Virus record (IMG/VR): IMGVR_UViG_2657244971_000003
Length of the DNA: 13,046 nt
Source: a virus
Taxonomy: Duplodnaviria; Heunggongvirae; Uroviricota; Caudoviricetes
Strand: one strand, 5' to 3'
Shown here: positions 2,399 to 13,046 of the stretch, piece after piece
How positions within the stretch are numbered: position 1 is the stretch's first letter
Layout: each line of letters opens with the position of its first letter
Made by a program: the position numbers and the translations under genes
Notes under the pieces: generated by a model
Databases searched by the model: none
Seen by the model: the letters and a program-made list of their open reading frames with translations, nothing else
What the model was told of the DNA's origin: nothing

Positions 2399-4357
2399 TT
2401 AATTTCTCAAAATAATATTACCAGTGGAGACAAACGAGAATATGAAGTTCCCGCGCGGCGTTCCGCCACCGGATGTATTTTGCTTCGGAAAAACCTGGAT
2501 GGAACCGAGCGCTGACATCTGAAATGTAAATGCCGGGGTATCATTTGTTATTACACTATCCTCAATAAACGAAATAACAGAAATGTTACCTATAGTCCCA
2601 GCCGACCTTTTGTATAACAGCTCATATATTGCACACTTTGTCTTGCTTGAGTTGTAAACTTGGCATGTGATTTTACCTGCACAGGATGACGCCGCATCGT
2701 TATCACTGTACGTCCCAACACCGACAACAGTTTTTGCAATACCTGACTCAACACTAACGGCTAACTCATTAGATGACTGAGACGATAAATTGTTATATCT
2801 GTCAGTTGTCAGCTTTTGAGCTGTTGAAACATTATCGTCGAGGAGCCTGGAGGCTACTGAATCGGCCTTAATATGCACCCCGCGAGACTGGCAACGCCCA
2901 AAAACTGCTGCACCGCCAGCGATAGAGACGCCTTTATGCGGAATTGAGGACAGGTCAACGCTACCGAAGTATGTCCTGTTTCCGCCATCACCACCAACCC
3001 TCTCGTCTATATTTCCAGGAACGACCCCTGCATATACCGCGCCTGAACCCACATTAATATCTAATATGTTACGGGTTGGTTTCTCTGCTGAAATAGAACC
3101 ATCTGCAATAGTTATGTTAGCGTAAATATCAGATGTACTCTCTATTCTCACTGCACTTGACGGTTGCTGCTGCCCACAGAATGCTATTTGATTAGATCCT
3201 GATATATTTAATGCAGCAGCCTGCCGTATAAATATCGCCTCTCTTCCACCTTCAAAATAATTGTTCGCTCCACTTATGTTTACCCACGCTGCTTTATCTA
3301 CATACAAATGATTTGAATGCGTTTTTGTGTTTCTGTCGGAATGCATTAAGTTATCTGAATAAATAAGACCATCAAGCTGCTCTGCTATAAACCCACCGTA
3401 CCGAGTAAACCAACCACGATTATTAGTGAATTTAAAATCATTATAGGCATACGCATGAGCATTATCGTGTTTCAGCTCAACTAATTTCCCGACATTAATG
3501 GCTGTCATGTTATCGATAGTGATAAGGCCTATTGCGTGAAATGGTGTTGTTGCGTCTGCAATGCCTTTGATTGCACAATCAACTCGAGTTGCTTTGATGT
3601 TAATGAAATCTATAAACCTTCCCTTTTTCAGCTTAAACCCGTAGTCACCACCAGGGGCAGTAGATGTAATCCCTATACCGTCAATGGTTTTAAGGGCCTC
3701 CCCCCTGCCGTCATTAATGATAAATGACAAATCTTGCAGCCAGCCGCCGCCAACAATATCACACAGTCTAGTCACCTCAATTGAAGCGCCCCCAAATTTC
3801 AACACCCCGCTAATGCCTAAGATAACCCCTTCATCTGAACACTTATGAACTGCATCAAGCAGCTTTTGAGGATCATTAATCACAGAAAATGAAAGCCCGA
3901 AATCTCTTGCGTCAATAACGGCTCTGTTTTCCAGGGAGTCTTTTAGAGTTTTCCCTCCGCCAACGCCAATTAATGAGCCATCTCCTTTCTTTAACTCATC
4001 ACGGAATCGTATTTCAAACTGGTCTGGATCATATTTCAATACATTCGGAAAATAGAACTGCTGCGCACCATATGCATCATAAACAGCCATAGAATGGCCT
4101 TGCACAGTTACGAATTTGGCAATCTGCCCGTTATATACCGGATATCCAGCAGCATTGATAACAATTGGCTGAGAAACAGGGACGTGAGATCCGTCTTCAT
4201 TCTCTACATAAACCTGAATCTGGTTTTCAGTATTTACCGGGTCCGTGTCAATTTTACCGATATAAATTTTGCCATTGGCTACGGCTTTAAAAGAACGCGC
4301 CATAGTGAAGATTTGCGAAGGCATCGATATAATCACATTGGCTGTAATGTCTGTCAT
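2399..4357 (-). CDS. Podovirus tailspike protein: P22-gp9-like N-terminal head-binding domain fused to a divergent receptor-binding domain, 652 aa
   Basis: N-terminal ~120 aa ([42 protein letters not shown]...[13 protein letters not shown]...NVLKYDPDQ) closely resembles the P22 tailspike head-binding domain as I recall it. The rest is Gly/Asn/Ser-rich, as expected for a beta-helix. GGAG lies about 10 nt upstream of the ATG at 4357. Receptor specificity cannot be called from sequence. Confidence 0.85.
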
Positions 4358-4457: not shown

Positions 4458-5381
4458 TCAGTAGTTATGTACTGAAGGAGGTAATTCTTTATTCTTAAGT
4501 CTCATCCATGCGGAAAGATTCGTTGGTCCGTCTGGCTCATTAATATCAACATCTCGTGTGTGATTGATTAAAACGTCTCTCGCCATTCCGATAACATACG
4601 AGAACTCATGACCGTAGTCGTAGCATCTGCCTGAATAGTTCGATTGAATTTGTTTTAGCGCCGGATACAGTTCGCGGAATAATGCCTGTGAGCGGTTGGC
4701 ATAATCCCATAACCATACAAGGCTGTTTGCTTCTTTTGCAGAAAGCTCGTTTGCTTTCTTCTCTTGTTTGCCGATTAACTCGCCTTCAAGCGGAACGCGA
4801 GCTGCAAGTGACAGAGCTTCGGTAAACTGCTCATCGCTGATTTCTTTGTATGAACACCCAAAATGAGATTTCAGTGACGACCACATGGTAATCATTGCCT
4901 TCGCCTGTTTTTCTTTTGGCAGAGACTGACCGCGACTCATGACGAGTTGTTTAATGGCTTCCTGCTGTTCAGTGGTGATTTTACCCGGCAACGCCTTTTT
5001 AGCTTTGCGTGGGTTAACTACATGGCCTTTAGTCCAGTAGTCGTATAGCACATCGTCACACTCTTCTTGATACTGGATTACATTGTCGCGGATTTCAGGG
5101 CGGACTTTGTTAGGGCTGATGGTTTGCAACCAGCCATTCAGTTTACGTAAAGCAAGGCAAATCATGGTCTGCACACCGCCAACTGAAGGTATTGCGATTT
5201 CCACAATTCCTTTAGCAAATCTTTGTTTTAACTTTGTAAACTGTGAAGCCCAATCCATACCCATTCCCTCAACGATAGGTTTCATTGGGGTGTACGGTTC
5301 GCCGTTGTGATTGACAACATAAAGCTCTGCGCCGTGGAATGGCACGTTGATAGTAGATACTGCTGTTGCTATACTTTTCAT
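4458..5381 (-). CDS. ant: Phage antirepressor (Ant-like), 307 aa
   Basis: N-terminus [17 protein letters not shown]...[27 protein letters not shown] resembles antirepressor N-terminal domains as I recall them. It lies between an arc-like gene and the tailspike, the P22 immI order. AGGAAT lies about 8 nt upstream of the ATG at 5381. Confidence 0.8.
5347..5375 (+). promoter_or_regulatory. Candidate promoter for a sar-like antisense RNA, inside the first codons of ant on the opposite strand
   Basis: TTGATA (5347-5352), 17-bp spacer, TATACT (5370-5375). The predicted start near 5382 is immediately antisense to the ant start codon (5379-5381). Confidence 0.4.
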
Positions 5382-5456
5382 GTCGTTAATTCCTATGCGT
5401 GGTTTTACGATACCGAAGCCCTGACTGTTCCAGCAGTTGGGGCTTCAACTTTTTTG
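5382..5456 (+). ncRNA. Putative sar-like small antisense RNA (~75 nt) complementary to the ant ribosome-binding region
   Basis: Runs from the predicted start (~5382) across the complement of the ant Shine-Dalgarno and ends at a plus-strand terminator: extended imperfect hairpin GAAGCCCTGACTG / CAGTTGGGGCTTC (5415-5446) followed by TTTTTT (5450-5455). P22 has a short Sar antisense RNA at the analogous position. Predicted from motifs only. Confidence 0.4.
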
Positions 5457-6814: not shown

Positions 6815-7042
6815 GTGAAGCGATGGTTCCTCATAATTACTGTTTTCGCGATCATTTACACTATTTTCCCTGCATTAAAAGCACCAATGCAAATAATTTC
6901 ACTAGCAATAATTTCGATTGGTGCTTTCATTGCAGTAGCCGTACTTGTGTTTAAGGTTTTAAAGTTTTTAGTTTGGCTATCAAAAGATGATGGATGCAAA
7001 GTTCATCAAGAAAAAGAAGGCAAAATAACCAAAGTTGACTAA
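6815..7042 (+). CDS. Hypothetical small inner-membrane protein with two predicted transmembrane helices, 75 aa from GTG 6815
   Basis: AAGGAGG (6803-6809) lies 5 nt upstream of the in-frame GTG at 6815; the tracked ORF begins at ATG 6791 without an RBS. Two hydrophobic segments (WFLIITVFAIIYTIF and IISLAIISIGAFIAVAVLVF). Same strand as mnt, the position where P22-like phages carry exclusion genes. Confidence 0.5.
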   Translation: MKRWFLIITVFAIIYTIFPALKAPMQIISLAIISIGAFIAVAVLVFKVLKFLVWLSKDDGCKVHQEKEGKITKVD

Positions 7043-8718
7043 CTGTCACTAGCGAGCCATGTAATAATCCCCGTGCGGGCAATGGTTTTTGCTTCATCTG
7101 TTGATAAGGTTTTCTCCCATCTCTTAAATGCCCCAGATTGCATCAGTTTCCTTTCTATTGCGCGTCTCACTTCTGCTCTGTCTACTGGTGCGTTTTGCAG
7201 GCGAAATAGCATTGATTTAAACTCAGGAGAAGATAGCAGAGCATCAGCAGCCTTTATCCTGCTTGTTTTCCCTGACATCAATGCAGACGTTATCACCCCT
7301 GTTGCACCTACACCAGGGAGACCAGATAAGCTTGTAATACCTTCCGCCGCAGCAGCTTTTGAGGCTATTCCATAAATTTTTGCGAGACTACCCTTTTCTT
7401 TCAGAAAGTTATTAACTTGCTGATCCACAAGACTACTAGCATACTGCTTACCAGTATTGAGTCTATTCATAGCCTTAGCTGCTTGATAAATCGTATCAAG
7501 GCGCTTTGATGCATCTGTGCCAATAGCATCACGGAGAGCCTTCATATTGGCCCCATTGCGTGACATTCCGTTATACCATTTTACAAATCCATCAACTCCT
7601 AATTGCTGACCAGGTGATTTGGCATAGCTGGTAAATGCTTTATTCATTGAGGTGAGCGCAACTTCCTGCCGCATATCCTTTGGAATCGACTTCATTAATT
7701 GCCTAAAGTCGCCACCGTTTCCTTTTGCCATATTAACAACAGCACTTTCAACTTTTAGAATTGCTGATTGCTGAAGTTTTCTACCCAAGACGGTTACAGC
7801 ATCATCTTCAATGGATTTTCGTTTTTTTACCAACTCCTTACCAAGCGTCCATAATTCCCCTGCGCCATATTTTTCTGCGACAGCCTGTTGGTCATCTGTT
7901 ATGGCTGCATATAACTTTTTAAGAACACCTGTTTCTTCATCCTTGAATGGACCAGAGCCTTTGCCAATAGCTTGTCCAACCTGCTTTCTAGCGAGATCTA
8001 AACGCCCATACGTTGGCAAGGTGTTTGGATCAAGTCGGTTCAATGTCCGCTTCATTATTGGAGATAATTCATCAATTCCACCTATGTCATCAGCAAAATC
8101 CTCTAAAAAATTCAATGTATTAGTTGCCTCAATCCGGTCTCTTACAGGAACCTTTTCGGCAATTTTGTTGTAGATGTTATCTGACTGATTTTGTAATGAT
8201 GAAATGGTTTTATCAAAATTATCTGCAAGCCTGTCAGAAACCAGTTGCTTATCAAGGCTTCCCCCAAATGAAGTTATCATTTCATCAGCTTTTCTTCCTA
8301 ATTCAGTAATAAAACGCTTATGCGCCTCACTAATCTCTGTTCCAGGGAGACTTGCCACTGCATTATCAAGAGCCCTGACAGCAGGATTATTAGAGATCAT
8401 GCCTGGAGTGGCATAATTTTCCAGTTCTAGCTCACGAATAGCATTTATCGCGTTAAAATCAGGATTAACTTCATCGGCGAAATCTTGAATAGCTCGTTGC
8501 CCGCCGATAAATTTATTGTCCATTGCGCCAGTAGCTTTCTTTAACGTTGCTTTAGATGATTTACTACCCATCCCTACGGATGAGCGATAAATATCTCCGG
8601 CACTATTTTTAATTTTTCCTGCAATCTTCCCAAGCGCTGGACCAACAATCTCGGCTATCCGGTAACTCCGGATGGTTGGATAAGCTGTAGTGAGCAGATG
8701 CCTTCCGCAGGGGAACAA
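7039..8718 (-). CDS. P22 gp16-family DNA ejection/injection protein, probably 5'-truncated (possible pseudogene)
   Basis: Long, alpha-helix-rich, Ala/Lys-rich product. It sits upstream of the sieA/mnt-like region, where gene 16 lies in P22. The frame is open to 8718, where the tracked ORF begins at a TTG with no RBS; the first in-frame ATG (8569-8571) has only a weak RBS. Identity is from synteny and composition, not motif recognition. Confidence 0.55.
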   Translation of the reverse strand: MFPCGRHLLTTAYPTIRSYRIAEIVGPALGKIAGKIKNSAGDIYRSSVGMGSKSSKATLKKATGAMDNKFIGGQRAIQDFADEVNPDFNAINAIRELELENYATPGMISNNPAVRALDNAVASLPGTEISEAHKRFITELGRKADEMITSFGGSLDKQLVSDRLADNFDKTISSLQNQSDNIYNKIAEKVPVRDRIEATNTLNFLEDFADDIGGIDELSPIMKRTLNRLDPNTLPTYGRLDLARKQVGQAIGKGSGPFKDEETGVLKKLYAAITDDQQAVAEKYGAGELWTLGKELVKKRKSIEDDAVTVLGRKLQQSAILKVESAVVNMAKGNGGDFRQLMKSIPKDMRQEVALTSMNKAFTSYAKSPGQQLGVDGFVKWYNGMSRNGANMKALRDAIGTDASKRLDTIYQAAKAMNRLNTGKQYASSLVDQQVNNFLKEKGSLAKIYGIASKAAAAEGITSLSGLPGVGATGVITSALMSGKTSRIKAADALLSSPEFKSMLFRLQNAPVDRAEVRRAIERKLMQSGAFKRWEKTLSTDEAKTIARTGIITWLASDS

Positions 8719-9148: not shown

Positions 9149-9161
9149 TGGCGGTTTTTTT
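9141..9161 (+). terminator. Rho-independent terminator
   Basis: CCGCC-TGAT-GGCGG hairpin followed by 7 T. The stop codon of the 55-aa ORF sits in the loop. Confidence 0.6.
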
Positions 9162-9172
9162 GGGGGTAGTAG

Positions 9173-9388
9173 ATGGCTGCAATTCACATTGTCTCAATAA
9201 TATGCAATGCAATTCAGATAGTTGCTTGCATTATCTTTGTTTTCTCAATTCTTCGCTCCCGACGATATTCTCCAGCAATTAACCGACATCCTGCACAGGT
9301 TGAAGCCGTCAGGATGGCTATAGAGTTACGAAATGAGATGAATAAGGCATTAATGGAGATGGAGAAACCATTCACTGACAAACATTAA
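9173..9388 (+). CDS. Hypothetical 71-aa protein with hydrophobic N-terminus
   Basis: ORF has an ATG start and a G-rich stretch upstream. N-terminal 25 residues are hydrophobic. No other support. Confidence 0.3.
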   Translation: MAAIHIVSIICNAIQIVACIIFVFSILRSRRYSPAINRHPAQVEAVRMAIELRNEMNKALMEMEKPFTDKH

Positions 9389-9466
9389 GAGTGGAAATAA
9401 AGAAATCACCCCGCCTCACACTCGATGAGGCATTTTCATTTATCAAGATATACAGACCTACCATCG

Positions 9467-9486
9467 CCGCATCAATGCGGTTTTTT
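9467..9486 (+). terminator. Putative rho-independent terminator just left of the 16-nt argW repeat
   Basis: CCGCA-TCAA-TGCGG hairpin followed by TTTTTT. Confidence 0.45.
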
Positions 9487-9496
9487 ATTGCCTGAT

Positions 9497-9512
9497 TTGC
9501 AGGTTCGATTCC
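9497..9512 (+). repeat. 16-nt direct repeat of the argW T-arm (TTGCAGGTTCGATTCC), candidate att core or att relic
   Basis: Exact 16/16 identity with 1054-1069 inside argW; flanking bases differ. The downstream sequence does not complete a T-stem, so it is not a tRNA. Confidence 0.6.
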
Positions 9513-9531
9513 CTATTCGGAGATAGCACTC

Positions 9532-9732
9532 ATGCAACACGAACTACAGCCTGATTCACTGGTTGATTTGAAATTCATCATGGCCGATACTGGCTTCGGT
9601 AAAACCTTCATCTACGACCGGATTAAGTCCGGCGACCTGCCAAAAGCCAAAGTTATCCACGGGCGAGCAAGATGGTTATATCGTGACCATTGTGAATTCA
9701 AAAATAAGCTCTTAAGCCGCGCTAATGGGTAA
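9532..9732 (+). CDS. torI: Excisionase / recombination directionality factor (TorI-like), 66 aa
   Basis: MQHELQPDSLVDLKFIMADTGFGKTFIYDRIKSGDLPKAKVIHGRARWLYRDHCEFKNKLLSRANG matches my recollection of E. coli TorI, the KplE1 excisionase. GGAGA lies about 8 nt upstream. The symbol is recalled, not searched. Confidence 0.7.
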   Translation: MQHELQPDSLVDLKFIMADTGFGKTFIYDRIKSGDLPKAKVIHGRARWLYRDHCEFKNKLLSRANG

Positions 9733-9747
9733 AATAGCGGGTAAAAT
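9727..9747 (+). promoter_or_regulatory. Tandem GGGTAAAAT motif copies near the right att site
   Basis: GGGTAAAAT at 9727-9735 and 9739-9747, overlapping the torI stop. The same motif clusters in front of intS at 1200-1244. Confidence 0.4.
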
Positions 9748-9805
9748 ATTTTTCACATCTAAAAAACACCATTCCAATCAATCCCCTGCTGCTTCAAGTA
9801 GATGT

Positions 9806-9818
9806 CTGCAGGGGACAC
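9806..9818 (+). repeat. 13-nt direct repeat of the argW 3' end (CTGCAGGGGACAC), candidate attR core of element A and relic attL of element B
   Basis: Exact 13/13 identity with 1069-1081. An 8-bp inverted partner TCCCCTGC sits at 9782-9789. Together with the 16-nt repeat it reconstitutes the argW 3' half (1054-1081), interrupted by about 293 bp that carry torI. Confidence 0.55.
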
Positions 9819-9932
9819 TTTAAAGACCTTTCTCTACATTTCACTTCATTACATAACCACTTAACAAAACAGTAAGTTATCACCGAATCGGCCTGATTTT
9901 CATTTCAGTTAATTTCATGACATTACAACCTC

Positions 9933-9981
9933 GTGATGGTATAAGTGATGGTATTCCCCAGTTCGATATGCAGATACCATC
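9933..9981. promoter_or_regulatory. Repeat cluster upstream of the second integrase (candidate arm-type or operator sites)
   Basis: Tandem direct 10-mers GTGATGGTAT at 9933-9942 and 9945-9954, plus an inverted copy ATACCATC at 9974-9981. Confidence 0.4.
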
Positions 9982-10004
9982 AATTTACCAAAATGAGTAC
10001 AGAT

Positions 10005-11279
10005 ATGGCCATTAATGTGCTTTCCCCCAAACAGATAGAAAACGCCAAGCCGAAGACCAATGATTACAAACTTACCGATGGAGGGAGTTTGTATCTACTG
10101 GTACGAAAGACTGGTGGAAAATACTGGCGTATGAATTATCGTTTTGATGGAAAACAAGTGACATTGGCATTAGGGGTCTACCCAGATGTCTCACTTGCAA
10201 CAGCGCGGAAACGGCGTGATGAAGCCAGGCAACTACTAGCCGATGGTCGTGATCCTCGCGAAGCAAAGAAACCCAAAAAGGAAGACCCAATTTCCCCCAC
10301 GTTCGAGAGTGTTGCCAGAGAGTGGCATAGTGGAACGATGGGGCATCCTGAGTGGAAAGAGATCACCCGTAAAAAAATTCTCCGAGAAATGGAAAACCAC
10401 CTCTTTCCTGCCATCGGTTCAAAGCCTATCGATACGCTCAAAACCCGTGACTTGATGCCGATGCTGGTTGAGATGACTGAGAAAGGAATTGGTGCCACAA
10501 CGAGCCGTGTAAAAACCACTATGACGAGCATCTTCCGTTATGCCGTGCAACGTGGAATTGTCGATTACAACCCTGCCCACGATCTAAAAGGTGCAATTAC
10601 GGCCCCCAAAGTACGACATCGCCCCGCACTACCTCTCGAACGTTTACCTGAACTGTTAGCGAAAACGAGAAGTTACACGGGAAGACCATTGACTCGCCTA
10701 GCAGTTCTCTTTTCCCTGCACACTTTTGTGCGATCCAGCGAACTACGACATGCCAGATGGGAGGAGATCGACATTGAAAATGGGCTATGGACGATACCAG
10801 GACAACGTGAAGAGATCGCAGGGGTTAAATTCTCAGATCGGGGTGCAAAGATGGGGGCTGCTCATTATGTCCCGCTATCTAGTCAGGCTATCGGGGTACT
10901 GGAGGATATAAGGAAAATCAGTGGTGAATATCTGCTGGTTTTTCCCGGTGACAGCAACCCATATAAACCGATGAGCGAAAACACAGTTAATAAAGCACTG
11001 CGAACGATGGGTTACGACACTCAAACTGATGTTTGCTTGCATGGGTTCAGGGCGATGGCCTGCTCTGCACTGACCGAATCAGGACTCTGGTCACGCGATG
11101 CAGTTGAACGGCAGATGAGTCACCAAGAAAGAAACGAAGTGCGGGCAGCATATGTGCATCTTGCGCAGCACATGCAGGAACGCCGCAGAATGATGCAATG
11201 GTGGTCTAATTATCTGGAACTAAATAAGGACGAATTCCATGCTCCTTATGACTTATCAGGTATTAACATTATCAATTAA
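10005..11279 (+). CDS. P4-family tyrosine integrase, about 424 aa
   Basis: N-terminus MAINVLSPKQIENAKPKTNDYKLTDGGSLYLLVRKTGGKYWRMNYRFDGKQ is the P4-integrase arm-binding domain pattern. Catalytic region has HGFRAMACS and RAAYVH. The start could instead be ATG 9993; the tracked ORF begins at GTG 9945 inside the repeat cluster. Confidence 0.8.
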   Translation: MAINVLSPKQIENAKPKTNDYKLTDGGSLYLLVRKTGGKYWRMNYRFDGKQVTLALGVYPDVSLATARKRRDEARQLLADGRDPREAKKPKKEDPISPTFESVAREWHSGTMGHPEWKEITRKKILREMENHLFPAIGSKPIDTLKTRDLMPMLVEMTEKGIGATTSRVKTTMTSIFRYAVQRGIVDYNPAHDLKGAITAPKVRHRPALPLERLPELLAKTRSYTGRPLTRLAVLFSLHTFVRSSELRHARWEEIDIENGLWTIPGQREEIAGVKFSDRGAKMGAAHYVPLSSQAIGVLEDIRKISGEYLLVFPGDSNPYKPMSENTVNKALRTMGYDTQTDVCLHGFRAMACSALTESGLWSRDAVERQMSHQERNEVRAAYVHLAQHMQERRRMMQWWSNYLELNKDEFHAPYDLSGINIIN

Positions 11280-11292
11280 ATACTCTTATAAT
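11263..11292 (+). promoter_or_regulatory. Candidate sigma70 promoter for the 293-aa orphan gene
   Basis: TTAACA (11263-11268), 18-bp spacer, perfect TATAAT (11287-11292). AGAGG RBS at 11300-11304. Confidence 0.45.
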
Positions 11293-11309
11293 TTAAAACA
11301 GAGGTCATA

Positions 11310-12191
11310 ATGCAGCATTCAACAGAGAATGAAACTATATTCTTAGGAAATCTATGGATTGACAAAAAAATACCACCATTAGAATATTGTTCATTTGAAC
11401 GCGCTTCAAGACTATTAGAATGCGAGATTGATGATTTATTACATCTATACGAAATAGGCGCTTTTAATATCGCATTCAAGGCGAATGGACTTGCAGTTAG
11501 ATTTAATGTTAATTTCCTCAATAAAAATCAGAAAATGGAAATTGACTTAATTCATCCCGTATTAACTAATCAATCACTAGAGATGGAATTTTCAACAATA
11601 TGGTATGACCTTAAAGATGATTCCTTTGAACATTTTGAAAATGGGCTTCAAATTATAGGATTTGCCTGTGGTATTTGGTACGCCGATGATATGATAAGTG
11701 ACATAAAAAATGGATTAGCTATAGATCCAGATTATGAATTCAGGCTTAAACCGGTAAAAATACGAGATAATGTTTTGATGGCAACGGCCTCATATGAAGG
11801 AAATAAGGTCATTGAGATTCCATTTGAAGATCTTCTTATCATGCGAAGAGATTTAGAGTTAATATGGAAATCAGTAAAAACTGGAATTCCTATGCCAAGT
11901 TTACTTACGAAAAGAATTTCATCTGAACCTAAAATCCCCAAGCGATTAAATAACACTGCTGAGCATCATGCAAAAAATAGGGAGGGGTTATTAAATGCAG
12001 CCATATATATATTAGCAAAATACCCAAGCGAATGTCGTGGTGAAAGAAAAGAGATAAGTCCTGAAAAGTGGACTAACGCCATAATTAAACATTTAGGAGA
12101 GCTACCTCCAATATTTATCACTAATGAACAAGAAATCTTAAGAAAATTACGATTAGCGGTTAATCATGCGGGATTAAAACAAAAGGGGTAG
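11310..12191 (+). CDS. Hypothetical 293-aa protein, strongly AT-rich, no recognisable domain; candidate accessory cargo
   Basis: Long ORF with a good RBS and its own promoter. It is visibly more AT-rich than the flanking integrase and alpA-like genes (judged by eye, not computed). I found no Walker A, clear nuclease or HTH signature by eye. Confidence 0.65.
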   Translation: MQHSTENETIFLGNLWIDKKIPPLEYCSFERASRLLECEIDDLLHLYEIGAFNIAFKANGLAVRFNVNFLNKNQKMEIDLIHPVLTNQSLEMEFSTIWYDLKDDSFEHFENGLQIIGFACGIWYADDMISDIKNGLAIDPDYEFRLKPVKIRDNVLMATASYEGNKVIEIPFEDLLIMRRDLELIWKSVKTGIPMPSLLTKRISSEPKIPKRLNNTAEHHAKNREGLLNAAIYILAKYPSECRGERKEISPEKWTNAIIKHLGELPPIFITNEQEILRKLRLAVNHAGLKQKG

Positions 12192-12293
12192 ACTGAAACA
12201 ATCTACAGGTAGAGTTGATTACACTACCTTCACAGCATTTTGATATCCCCATAGTATCTGCCGTGTTCATTACATAATACGGCAGGTAATTTC

Positions 12294-12509
12294 ATGACAT
12301 TAAAAACTTATCCTATCACTGGACATGCCCGCCCACGAGCTACTGCTGACTTTTTGCAAATAAGTACGGTTACTCTCTGGCGCTGGGAAAAGAACAATCC
12401 TGAATTTCCCAAATCTATACGCATTTCAAAACGGGTATCTGTTTACGATGCACAAGAAATTAGGCAGTGGGTTAAAGCTCAATCAGCAGGATTGGAGGAA
12501 GTAGTGTAA
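12294..12509 (+). CDS. AlpA-family phage regulatory protein / excisionase-like HTH protein, 71 aa
   Basis: ISTVTLWRWEKNNPEFPKSIRISKRVSVYDAQEIRQWV fits the AlpA/Xis-like winged-helix pattern. A hairpin CTGCCGT...ACGGCAG (12258-12285) lies just upstream. Confidence 0.65.
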   Translation: MTLKTYPITGHARPRATADFLQISTVTLWRWEKNNPEFPKSIRISKRVSVYDAQEIRQWVKAQSAGLEEVV

Positions 12510-12558
12510 TGACAATATTAACAAAGCTGGGGAGAAAAAAGCCTCCCCAACGTATTAA

Positions 12559-12753
12559 TCAATTCTTTGGTTCTAAACCTCGGCTTTGTAACTCTTTGCG
12601 TAGAATGCGCTTGATCCAAGCCGCTAGCGATTCATCGCCATCCTGCTGTTGTGCTTGTTCCATCAGTTCACGCAGTTCAGGGTCAAGTCGGAACTGGAAT
12701 GGCGGATTCCCACGTCTTTCATTTTTGTGTGTTGACACGTCAATTACACCCAT
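12559..12753 (-). CDS. Hypothetical small DNA-binding protein, possibly ribbon-helix-helix, 64 aa
   Basis: FQFRLDPELRELMEQA...SLAAWIKRILRKEL has a strand-helix-helix-like pattern. No clear RBS. It is divergent from the Icd-like ORF across an inverted-repeat region. Confidence 0.4.
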   Translation of the reverse strand: MGVIDVSTHKNERRGNPPFQFRLDPELRELMEQAQQQDGDESLAAWIKRILRKELQSRGLEPKN

Positions 12754-12766
12754 TGTAATGTATTTA

Positions 12767-12787
12767 TGTGTAATGACACATTACACA
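12767..12787. promoter_or_regulatory. Inverted repeat TGTGTAATG-ACA-CATTACACA, candidate operator
   Basis: 9-bp arms are perfect reverse complements with a 3-bp spacer. Related ATTACA/TGTAAT motifs occur at about 12741-12760, 12215-12222 and 12268-12275. Confidence 0.4.
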
Positions 12788-12869
12788 CAGAAAAACAAAA
12801 TAGCAACGCCCCGGAGTGTTTGCAGCAGCACCGAGGCGTCTGACCAGCACGTTATATGAGGTAACGAAG

Positions 12870-13046
12870 ATGGCTAAACAGAAGTGTACCTGGTTATTTG
12901 CGGCGATCAACCGCAGTCAACGCAATGCCCGTCCTGTGATGTTAAGGATCACCGCTGATAACGAACGATCAGCGCGGCGCAGACTTGCCCCGGACTATGT
13001 ACTGAGCTTTGCCGGGCGCATTCCCTGCGGAGGTGAACATGCGTAA
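12870..13046 (+). CDS. Small Icd-like protein (tentative), 58 aa
   Basis: ATG 12870 with GAGGT 7 nt upstream; the tracked ORF begins further upstream at 12816. MAKQKCTWLFAAINRSQRNARPVMLRITADNERSARRRLAPDYVLSFAGRIPC resembles my recollection of Icd-like small proteins in P4-family islands. The functional label is weak. Confidence 0.45.
   Translation: MAKQKCTWLFAAINRSQRNARPVMLRITADNERSARRRLAPDYVLSFAGRIPCGGEHA

Follow-up and report, generated by a model that had tools for sequence, protein, structure and literature searches.

A conserved T-arm box in the torI leader and a hybrid attachment site at an Escherichia coli argW locus

This study concerns a stretch of 13,046 nucleotides (the window, numbered from its first letter) from IMG/VR virus record IMGVR_UViG_2657244971_000003, which is the Escherichia coli argW locus, occupied by an HK620/KplE1-type prophage remnant (intS to torI) and then, in tandem, by a P4-like satellite. 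Two short copies of the tRNA gene argW lie on either side of torI, the gene for a recombination directionality factor (RDF), and it was to these that an earlier note on the same DNA had drawn attention. We find that the downstream copy, of 13 nt, is at once the core of the right prophage attachment (att) site, attR, and the left junction of the satellite, so that one hybrid site serves two elements. The upstream copy, of 16 nt, is phage DNA, and it contains what is apparently an undescribed conserved element in the torI leader, which we call the T-arm box. Most of the locus is ordinary att biology that has already been explained, and the T-arm box is the only part of it that could add to knowledge. 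As an overall explanation, we consider it probable that the att assignments given here hold together with a phage-borne box that is under selection in the torI leader.

Two exact copies of argW sequence

The argW gene (1009-1083, + strand), a complete tRNA-Arg(CCU) with its CCA encoded, is recognised by ARAGORN and by the Rfam tRNA model (63 bits), and yfdC lies upstream of it in the window. The 16-mer TTGCAGGTTCGATTCC occurs exactly twice in the window, at 1054-1069 inside argW and at 9497-9512, as does the 13-mer CTGCAGGGGACAC, at 1069-1081 and 9806-9818. All four copies are on the + strand, no other copy of either sequence occurs on either strand of the window, and allowing two mismatches for the 16-mer and one for the 13-mer brought no extra matches there. 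In dinucleotide shuffles the expected numbers of matches were 0.02 (16-mer) and 0.01 (13-mer), with none of 200 shuffles reaching two, and the analytic expectation for any argW 16-mer or 13-mer to recur in 13 kb is 3.6e-4 or 0.024. The two distal copies are 293 bp apart, enclose torI and tile argW 1054-1081 with a 1-nt overlap at C1069. Both repeats are thus real, exact and not the product of chance, and the claim of the earlier note that 16-nt and 13-nt copies of argW flank a torI-like gene and jointly cover 1054-1081 holds in its coordinates and in the uniqueness of the repeats.

One attachment core for two elements

The ends of prophage KplE1 are set by a duplicated 16-nt core, CTGCAGGGGACACCAT (PMC2951348), and phage Kapi1 uses the same site plus one base (17 bp), with its attP between xis and int (PMC8787464). 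E. coli K-12 carries CTGCAGGGGACACCAT at the place homologous to 9806-9821. In the window the attL core (1069-1084, + strand) matches this sequence at 16 of 16 positions, and the attR core matches only at the first 13 (9806-9818), after which TTT stands where K-12 has CAT; the crossover-proximal part of the attR core is intact. When 9300-10000 was searched with megablast, a large class of genomes stopped matching exactly at 9818 and continued into dsdC.

We built three hypothetical junctions and searched for them in 5,426 complete genomes. The empty site (argW...CACCAT/CCTTGTG, on the dsdC side, the slash marking the junction) is found in 911 of them. A direct fusion of argW to the satellite (...GGGGACAC/TTTAAAGACC, that is, /TTTAAAG) had been predicted before it was seen, and was then found in 67 genomes at 99.5-99.8% identity over the whole chimeric query. 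The phage-satellite tandem junction, as it stands in the window, occurs in ten. The 13-mer at 9806-9818 is therefore the core of the prophage attR and also the left junction of the satellite: a phage P arm (..GATGT), then CTGCAGGGGACAC with TGCAGGG at 9807-9813, then the satellite P' arm (TTTAAAG..), on the + strand throughout. It matches argW over 13 nt and not 16 because its right flank is this satellite arm, TTTAAAG, where the chromosome has CATCC. This is the reading that the earlier note had preferred, namely an IntS/TorI attR core that doubles as the left junction of a P4-family island, and the homology break at 9818, the K-12 core and the 67 fused genomes bear it out; of its label 'relic attL' the junction role stands, and we speak of a hybrid site instead of a relic. 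The comparisons that it had called for, with empty argW sites and with Sf6, HK620 and KplE1, place a boundary at the 13/16-nt core and nowhere else.

The simplest history is that the phage integrated into an argW that already held the satellite. The CAC/TTT left at attR places strand exchange to the left of CAC, most probably within TGCAGGG, and on this simplest history a full argW with encoded CCA was restored at attL. A point that weighs against this order of events is that the same tandem product could arise if the satellite integrase is able to use the phage attR.

The 16-mer is phage DNA and not a recombination boundary

An identical 16-mer stands 5' of torI in the KplE1 prophage of K-12 and in all torI prophages examined. 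In the virion genomes of HK620 and Sf6, which carry the same 16-mer as the window, the order is 16-mer, hkaC/torI, annotated attP core and int, and the 16-mer lies about 305 bp to the left of the core in KplE1, HK620 and Sf6 alike. The note had allowed that the 16-mer might be part of the phage arm, and its presence in virion DNA 5' of hkaC/torI agrees with this. The order xis-attP-int is the published arrangement of KplE1 and HK620 (PMC2951348; PMC8787464), and so is no peculiarity of the window.

Could the 16-mer be the functional recombination core, which would leave torI outside the element? In favour of this there is only the formal point that the 16-mer repeats a piece of argW in direct orientation. 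On the other side stand the virion genomes, in which torI and the box are packaged together with an attP core annotated downstream of torI; the 911 empty sites, which keep neither torI nor the 16-mer; and the homology between genomes, which breaks at 9818 and never at 9512. Recombination at the 16-mer would, moreover, disrupt argW. Finally, excisive recombination takes place in vitro on a 135-bp attR whose start is a primer lying within the 3' end of torI (PMC3509656); in window coordinates this fragment starts at about 9708 and so is without the 16-mer, which is dispensable for the chemistry of excision in vitro. Phage genomes run continuously across 9497-9512, with no boundary there between element and host such as an att core or scar would mark. 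The note had offered this reading as its alternative, and these observations refute it.

A conserved box in the torI leader

What, then, is the 16-mer doing there? Its template is the T-arm of argW (1054-1069, + strand: the 5' strand of the T-stem, the T-loop and the first CC of the 3' strand), and the box as we define it spans 9497-9513 on the + strand, comprising the 16-mer and the part conserved across lineages, CAGGTTCGATTCCC (9500-9513). Divergent relatives of TorI were gathered from genomes, from phages and from a large protein database with gene-context look-ups, giving 21 lineages. The 60-nt xis leader contains GTTCGATT in 13 of these, GTTCGATTCC in 11 and AGGTTCGATTCC in eight, and in 1000 shuffles no 8-mer was common to more than three sequences. 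In 13 of the 21 the centre of the box, (C)AGGTTCGATTCCC, is retained at a distance of 26-42 nt upstream of xis; the consensus is C.GGTTCGATTCCC, and in most lineages it ends 5-9 nt before a ribosome-binding GGAG, with flanks that cannot be aligned. Among Enterobacterales phages the box is kept even though the xis product is only 52% (Emek), 39% (phiEt88) or 30% (a sequence that we label L119) identical to TorI, and overall 11-13 of its nucleotides are invariant where the leader has been randomised and the xis proteins are 30-88% identical. On two independent occasions it has been duplicated in tandem with both copies perfect, with a period of 16 nt in Erwinia phage Midgardsormr38 (L007 1984-2015) and of 13 nt in L119 (1913-1941). 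A scan of viral contigs brought only identical E. coli copies, which we used solely for population variants.

Since 11-13 nt stay invariant while their surroundings randomise, the box looks selected and not like a scar, and judged by its sequence it behaves as a cis-element that mimics the left half of attB. A functionless relic, whether an old att scar or a captured tRNA fragment whose decay is pending, is a rather unlikely alternative. The 16-mer is of course tRNA-derived by sequence, with 16/16 identity in E. coli; it could plausibly have arisen by duplication of the left arm of attP or attB; and it is missing in eight of the 21 lineages, so it is not essential. Decay would leave unexplained the invariance just described (a difficulty that also faces the note's idea of an older att scar), the two perfect tandem duplications and the constant place 5-9 nt before the Shine-Dalgarno sequence (SD) in most lineages.

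The probable crossover segment and the half-site that the box would copy

A possible meaning of the box comes from the att core itself. The heptamer TGCAGGG, at 1070-1076 in the attL core, is invariant in 21-26 loci (Escherichia, Citrobacter, Serratia, Pantoea, Erwinia, Edwardsiella, Tatumella, Dryocola, Klebsiella, Salmonella phages), whereas the six bases to its left (gatgtc, gatgta, ggcgta, ggtgcc, gacgtc and others) and the bases to its right (gacacc, aacgcc, ggcaat, gaatgc and others) vary; in HK620 the two flanks, GATGTC and GACACC, are imperfect inverted repeats of each other. This combination of an invariant segment, variable flanks and an inverted repeat makes TGCAGGG the probable 7-bp overlap, or crossover segment, of the module, and narrows the IntS crossover accordingly.

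In argW the sequence of the box ends at GATTCC, and the very next base opens TGCAGGG. Because the invariant heptamer adjoins it, we infer that argW 1054-1069 is the left (B) core-type half-site of attB, of which the box would be a copy. Strand exchange needs identity at the overlap, so that identity of the att core begins there, and the two repeats tile 1054-1081 because both are delimited by the same edge, the start of TGCAGGG. Besides the half-site sequence GATTCC, the box in the window contains a TorI pentamer, GTTCG (9503-9507). A full core-like site at the box was considered and dropped, because anything from 5 to 14 nt separates GATTCC from the GAGAT of the SD region.

The left half-site of attP itself is commonly TTCGATGTA, like the TTCGATTCC of the tRNA, and in most lineages it lies directly to the left of TGCAGGG. 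attP therefore holds two copies of the T-loop sequence and not one copy split by an insertion, and the earlier picture of a tRNA half reconstituted from two pieces does not survive this second T-loop-like copy beside the core in most relatives. For the same reason we do not take it as the simplest origin that a torI cassette was inserted once into a long tRNA-like attP, since a T-loop-like TTCGAT is retained beside the core too.

An operator for TorI, for integrase or for both?

A first candidate for what binds the box is TorI. The published TorI sites are GTTCG, GATCG and GTCCG (PMC2951348); the box has GGTTCG, identical to site I4; and the Emek clade, whose P' arms use GTTC(G/T), keeps GTTCG in its box. 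The box might then be an operator for TorI only, through which TorI regulates its own gene as it represses PintS at attL. We think this unlikely. Conservation extends over 12-13 nt (C.GGTTCGATTCCC), far past the pentamer, whereas genuine TorI sites are variable on either side; the boxes in the tandem duplications are spaced by 13 and 16 nt, as against the 10/20-nt phasing of the attL sites; and the site is single in most lineages, the window too having one GTTCG without a phased partner. The comparison with phiEt88 is also telling: there the P'-arm repeats, presumably the RDF sites, are GTAAC/GTTAC where HK620 has GTTCG, and the arm sites are GGGCATAA where HK620 has GGGTAAAA, but the box, TAGGTTCGATTCCC, is kept. 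The box would thus seem to track the target and not the RDF.

A second candidate comes from the GenBank record of HK620, which marks a putative 'phage integration' promoter and a cII site (L005 1522-1560; CII site TTGCCTGATTTGC). On that annotation the 16-mer overlaps pI, a CII-dependent promoter for integration functions; the second TTGC of the annotated site forms the first four nucleotides of the 16-mer, and a TTGCCTG(A/G) motif recurs in a clade of Citrobacter and metagenome-assembled genomes. Such a promoter would, however, co-express the excisionase during lysogenisation, and no -10/-35 pair here passes a promoter scan. Lambda-type CII sites read TTGC-N6-TTGC, and here (9488-9500) the spacing is TTGC-N5-TTGC. 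The TTGC repeats are, in addition, absent from Edwardsiella, Pantoea, Serratia, Erwinia, Emek and phiEt88, all of which have the box, and we give this explanation very little credence.

Equally little can be said for an action of the box as RNA, either as a T-arm mimic or as an anti-SD sequence (UUCC:GGAG) controlling the translation of torI or the processing of a read-through transcript. The box does belong to the part of the leader that is transcribed, with 5-9 nt between it and the SD; the minimum-free-energy fold pairs AUUCC with GGAG in four lineages; and Edwardsiella and P. stewartii can form a 5-bp hairpin resembling a T-arm. Yet single-sequence folds of 13 lineages and of the leader in the window gave neither a common nor a significant structure (z-scores -1.8 to +1.0), E. 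coli has not kept the 3' strand of the T-stem, covarying pairs are missing because the box itself never varies, and Rfam finds nothing at the box.

Our own suggestion starts from the target. All of these phages share it and would therefore share the need for an integrase that recognises TTCGATTCC/TGCAGGG. The box may be an operator in the torI leader to which the core-binding and catalytic domains of integrase bind, possibly together with TorI through GTTCG, and binding would act as a roadblock or operator that damps read-through expression of torI in the lysogen. Integrase might sit at the box alone, or be bridged to it from the GGGTAAAA arm sites 230 bp downstream. The transcriptional setting is compatible with this idea: a scan of 9150-9950 detected no sigma70-like promoter, and two terminator-like hairpins (9413-9431, and 9466-9481 with a T-run; 9413-9487 in all, + strand) lie directly 5' of the box, so that a promoter-less torI preceded by terminators fits expression by read-through transcription. 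Rho-dependent silencing of such read-through transcripts was reportedly described by Menouni et al. in 2013. The main switch of KplE1 excision is considered to lie in the control of torI (PMC2951348, discussion), and in the literature searched no cis-element has been described in the torI leader.

How far should this be believed? We put forward only tentatively, as an unproven proposal short of even odds, that the box is a putative operator for integrase, and possibly TorI, on the torI leader. More doubtful still is the fully specified version, in which the box would be an attB-mimic operator, a stand-alone left half-site at which constitutive integrase blocks the read-through transcription or the translation of torI in the lysogen. 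Several points weigh against us. Binding of IntS or TorI to the box is so far read from sequence, and for a tyrosine recombinase a half-site standing alone is normally a weak target. Eight of the 21 lineages (Klebsiella phage Chronis, Erwinia phage EhrS_49, Dryocola, Tatumella and several Pantoea) lack the box, which is therefore dispensable, and within E. coli it shows a few singleton single-nucleotide polymorphisms, as do its neighbours. The position of the TGCAGGG crossover comes from conservation and not from mapped cleavage sites. Lastly, relatives that use another tRNA were sought by tblastn against phages (with TorI and the phiEt88 xis), a genome scan, a profile search of 5.8 billion proteins and context look-ups, and none was found; all carry the TGCAGGGGAC/argW core, so that co-variation between box and target cannot be followed within the family. 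The AlpA homologues of Pseudomonas phages phi297 and F116 were set aside as comparators because of their convergent int/alpA layout.

As to novelty, the T-arm copy goes unmentioned in the literature searched, and a literal search for AGGTTCGATTCC gave nothing relevant.

The surrounding locus

All of the following features are on the + strand unless noted. The P' arm of attL (1085-1244), with its sites defined as in PMC2951348, holds five TorI pentamers (GTTCG at 1091, GTCCG at 1111, GTTCG at 1154, GTTCG at 1164 and GATCG at 1174), the -35 element of PintS (TTGACA at 1179) and IntS arm-type sites GGGTAAAA/GGATAAAA/TTTTACCC at 1200-1244. Directly 3' of attL comes intS (1245-2393), whose product is of the P4-family integrase type, has the Pfam architecture Arm-DNA-bind_3, Phage_int_M and Phage_integrase, and shares 98% identity with K-12 IntS. 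The prophage interior then includes a P22-type tailspike, an antirepressor with its sar antisense RNA and an open reading frame (ORF) of 559 amino acids (7039-8718, - strand) without a Pfam match. The sar RNA (Rfam RF00262, 81 bits; 5383-5450) lies beside the P22-type antirepressor gene (4458-5381, - strand), and the pair is an immI remnant that has survived in the reduced prophage. The window as a whole is absent from every complete E. coli genome of the collection, and its pieces are mosaic.

The right end of the prophage is likewise a mosaic. The segment 9404-9494, with the hairpin GCCTCACACTCGATGAGGC, is shared at 85-98% with HK022, HK97, the mEp phages, epsilon34 and ST64T, in which the matching segment overlaps the xis region. 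Homology with HK022, HK97, epsilon34 and ST64T ends at about 9494, 2 nt before the 16-mer, which is a mosaic boundary and therefore makes the box the first element of the argW-specific module. The Shine-Dalgarno sequence of torI, GGAG (9519-9522), follows 5 nt past the box, and torI itself (9532-9732, 66 amino acids, identical to TorI of K-12, HK620 and Sf6) lies at the end of the prophage opposite intS and is transcribed toward attR. Two GGGTAAAA repeats over its stop codon (9727-9746) are putative IntS arm-type (P) sites, judged by their similarity to the published P' sites (TAAA motif, PMC2951348). A conserved inverted repeat, TCCCCTGC (9782-9789) and GCAGGGGA (9808-9815), spans 9782-9815 and joins the P arm to the tRNA-derived core; across 18 lineages 89.5% of cells pair, compared with 38-59% in slid registers, and there is one compensatory change (Edwardsiella TCCC/GGGA) along with several G-T wobbles, the repeat being shifted yet present in the Emek clade. 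The torI transcript may carry it as a 3'-terminal hairpin.

Two further loci show how variable the module can be. In a metagenome contig (L116 2241-2800) the core connects an Emek-type xis that has GGGCATAA arm sites with an HK620-type P' arm and intS. This is another hybrid att site, and it implies that argW held prophages of two module subtypes in tandem. Proteus hauseri (L024 2501-2674) encodes a TorI homologue of 74% identity with no T-arm box, and with no TGCAGGG core within 330 bp downstream; a tRNA-Arg(CCU) lies on the opposite strand at 3995-4067, 1.3 kb away, so that this module is either rearranged or differently organised.

Downstream of the hybrid site the window holds the left part of the satellite (9819-13046, P' arm first), which runs past the window end. 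It comprises an integrase (10005-11279) with 31% identity to IntS and the same Pfam architecture, an ORF of 293 amino acids (11310-12191) and an AlpA-family regulator (12294-12509). Near-identical elements in complete genomes (L002, L029) continue with AlpA, Icd-like, TOPRIM/DUF927 primase, Psu and ogr/Delta genes and put the whole at about 11.5 kb, the window ending before the Icd-like, primase, Psu and Delta genes; by its gene content, then, the downstream element is a P4-like satellite. The far end, which lies outside the window, reads TTCGATTCCTGCAGGG-ACACCAT and then the dsdC flank: L029 has TTCGATTCCTGCAGGGGACAC at argW and TTCGATTCCTGCAGGG-ACAC at the far end, and L004 has the same. This right-end repeat is one G shorter than argW in two unrelated genomes (L029 31703-31725, L004 14459-14481), and because of that missing G the crossover of the satellite integrase cannot be placed as between the T-loop and the 3' end. 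Where the satellite alone occupies argW, the gene reads ...GGGGACAC/TTT, its CCA is not encoded and PGAP calls a 72-nt tRNA (L029 20160-20190, NCTC9087; the junction found in 67 E. coli genomes); once an HK620-type phage has integrated, as it has in the window, the gene again encodes its CCA (1081-1083). Of the two possible orders, argW-phage-satellite is seen in ten genomes and argW-satellite-phage in none of the 5,426, though the phage attL keeps the whole tRNA including the satellite repeat.

Relation to known systems and significance

The locus is a member of the IntS-TorI module of KplE1 (CPS-53), HK620, Sf6 and Kapi1, with which it shares the integrase (98%), an identical TorI, the core sequence and target, the order xis-attP-int, and an attL with five TorI sites, arm sites and PintS. 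It differs in its attR, with 13 of 16 nt and a satellite as outer flank in place of the dsdC side, and in its interior, which is a different remnant (tailspike, ant/sar and the 559-amino-acid ORF). With the tandem tRNA islands of the variable argW-dsdCXA region and with P4-like satellites it has in common the P4-family integrase at the tRNA-side junction and, in full-length relatives, the AlpA, Icd-like, primase, Psu and Delta genes, as well as a direct repeat of the 3' part of the tRNA at the far end. The satellite repeat is distinct in that it starts in the T-loop (TTCGATTCC...), 8 nt to the left of the phage core, and in that its P' arm does not restore CCA. Like lambda-type att sites, the module has an imperfect inverted repeat (GATGTC/GACACC) around a 7-mer, TGCAGGG, together with arm-type repeats and phased RDF sites (PMC2951348). 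It departs from them in placing xis and int on opposite sides of attP, and in having a further copy of the probable left half-site of attB, which stands by itself in the xis leader at a distance of about 305 bp. We know of no counterpart of such an isolated half-site copy in lambda att sites.

Much of what we report confirms textbook and KplE1 biology, and the att assignments otherwise do no more than that. The window is nonetheless a clean natural case of a phage using a tRNA gene already occupied by a satellite, with one hybrid site serving both elements. The T-arm box, a 13-nt element found across genera at the torI ribosome-binding site, is a candidate for the control of torI, and is in our opinion a modest but real lead. 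If the proposal is true, it would provide a direct link, in which integrase represses its own directionality factor, in the excision control of the whole family of argW-targeting modules.

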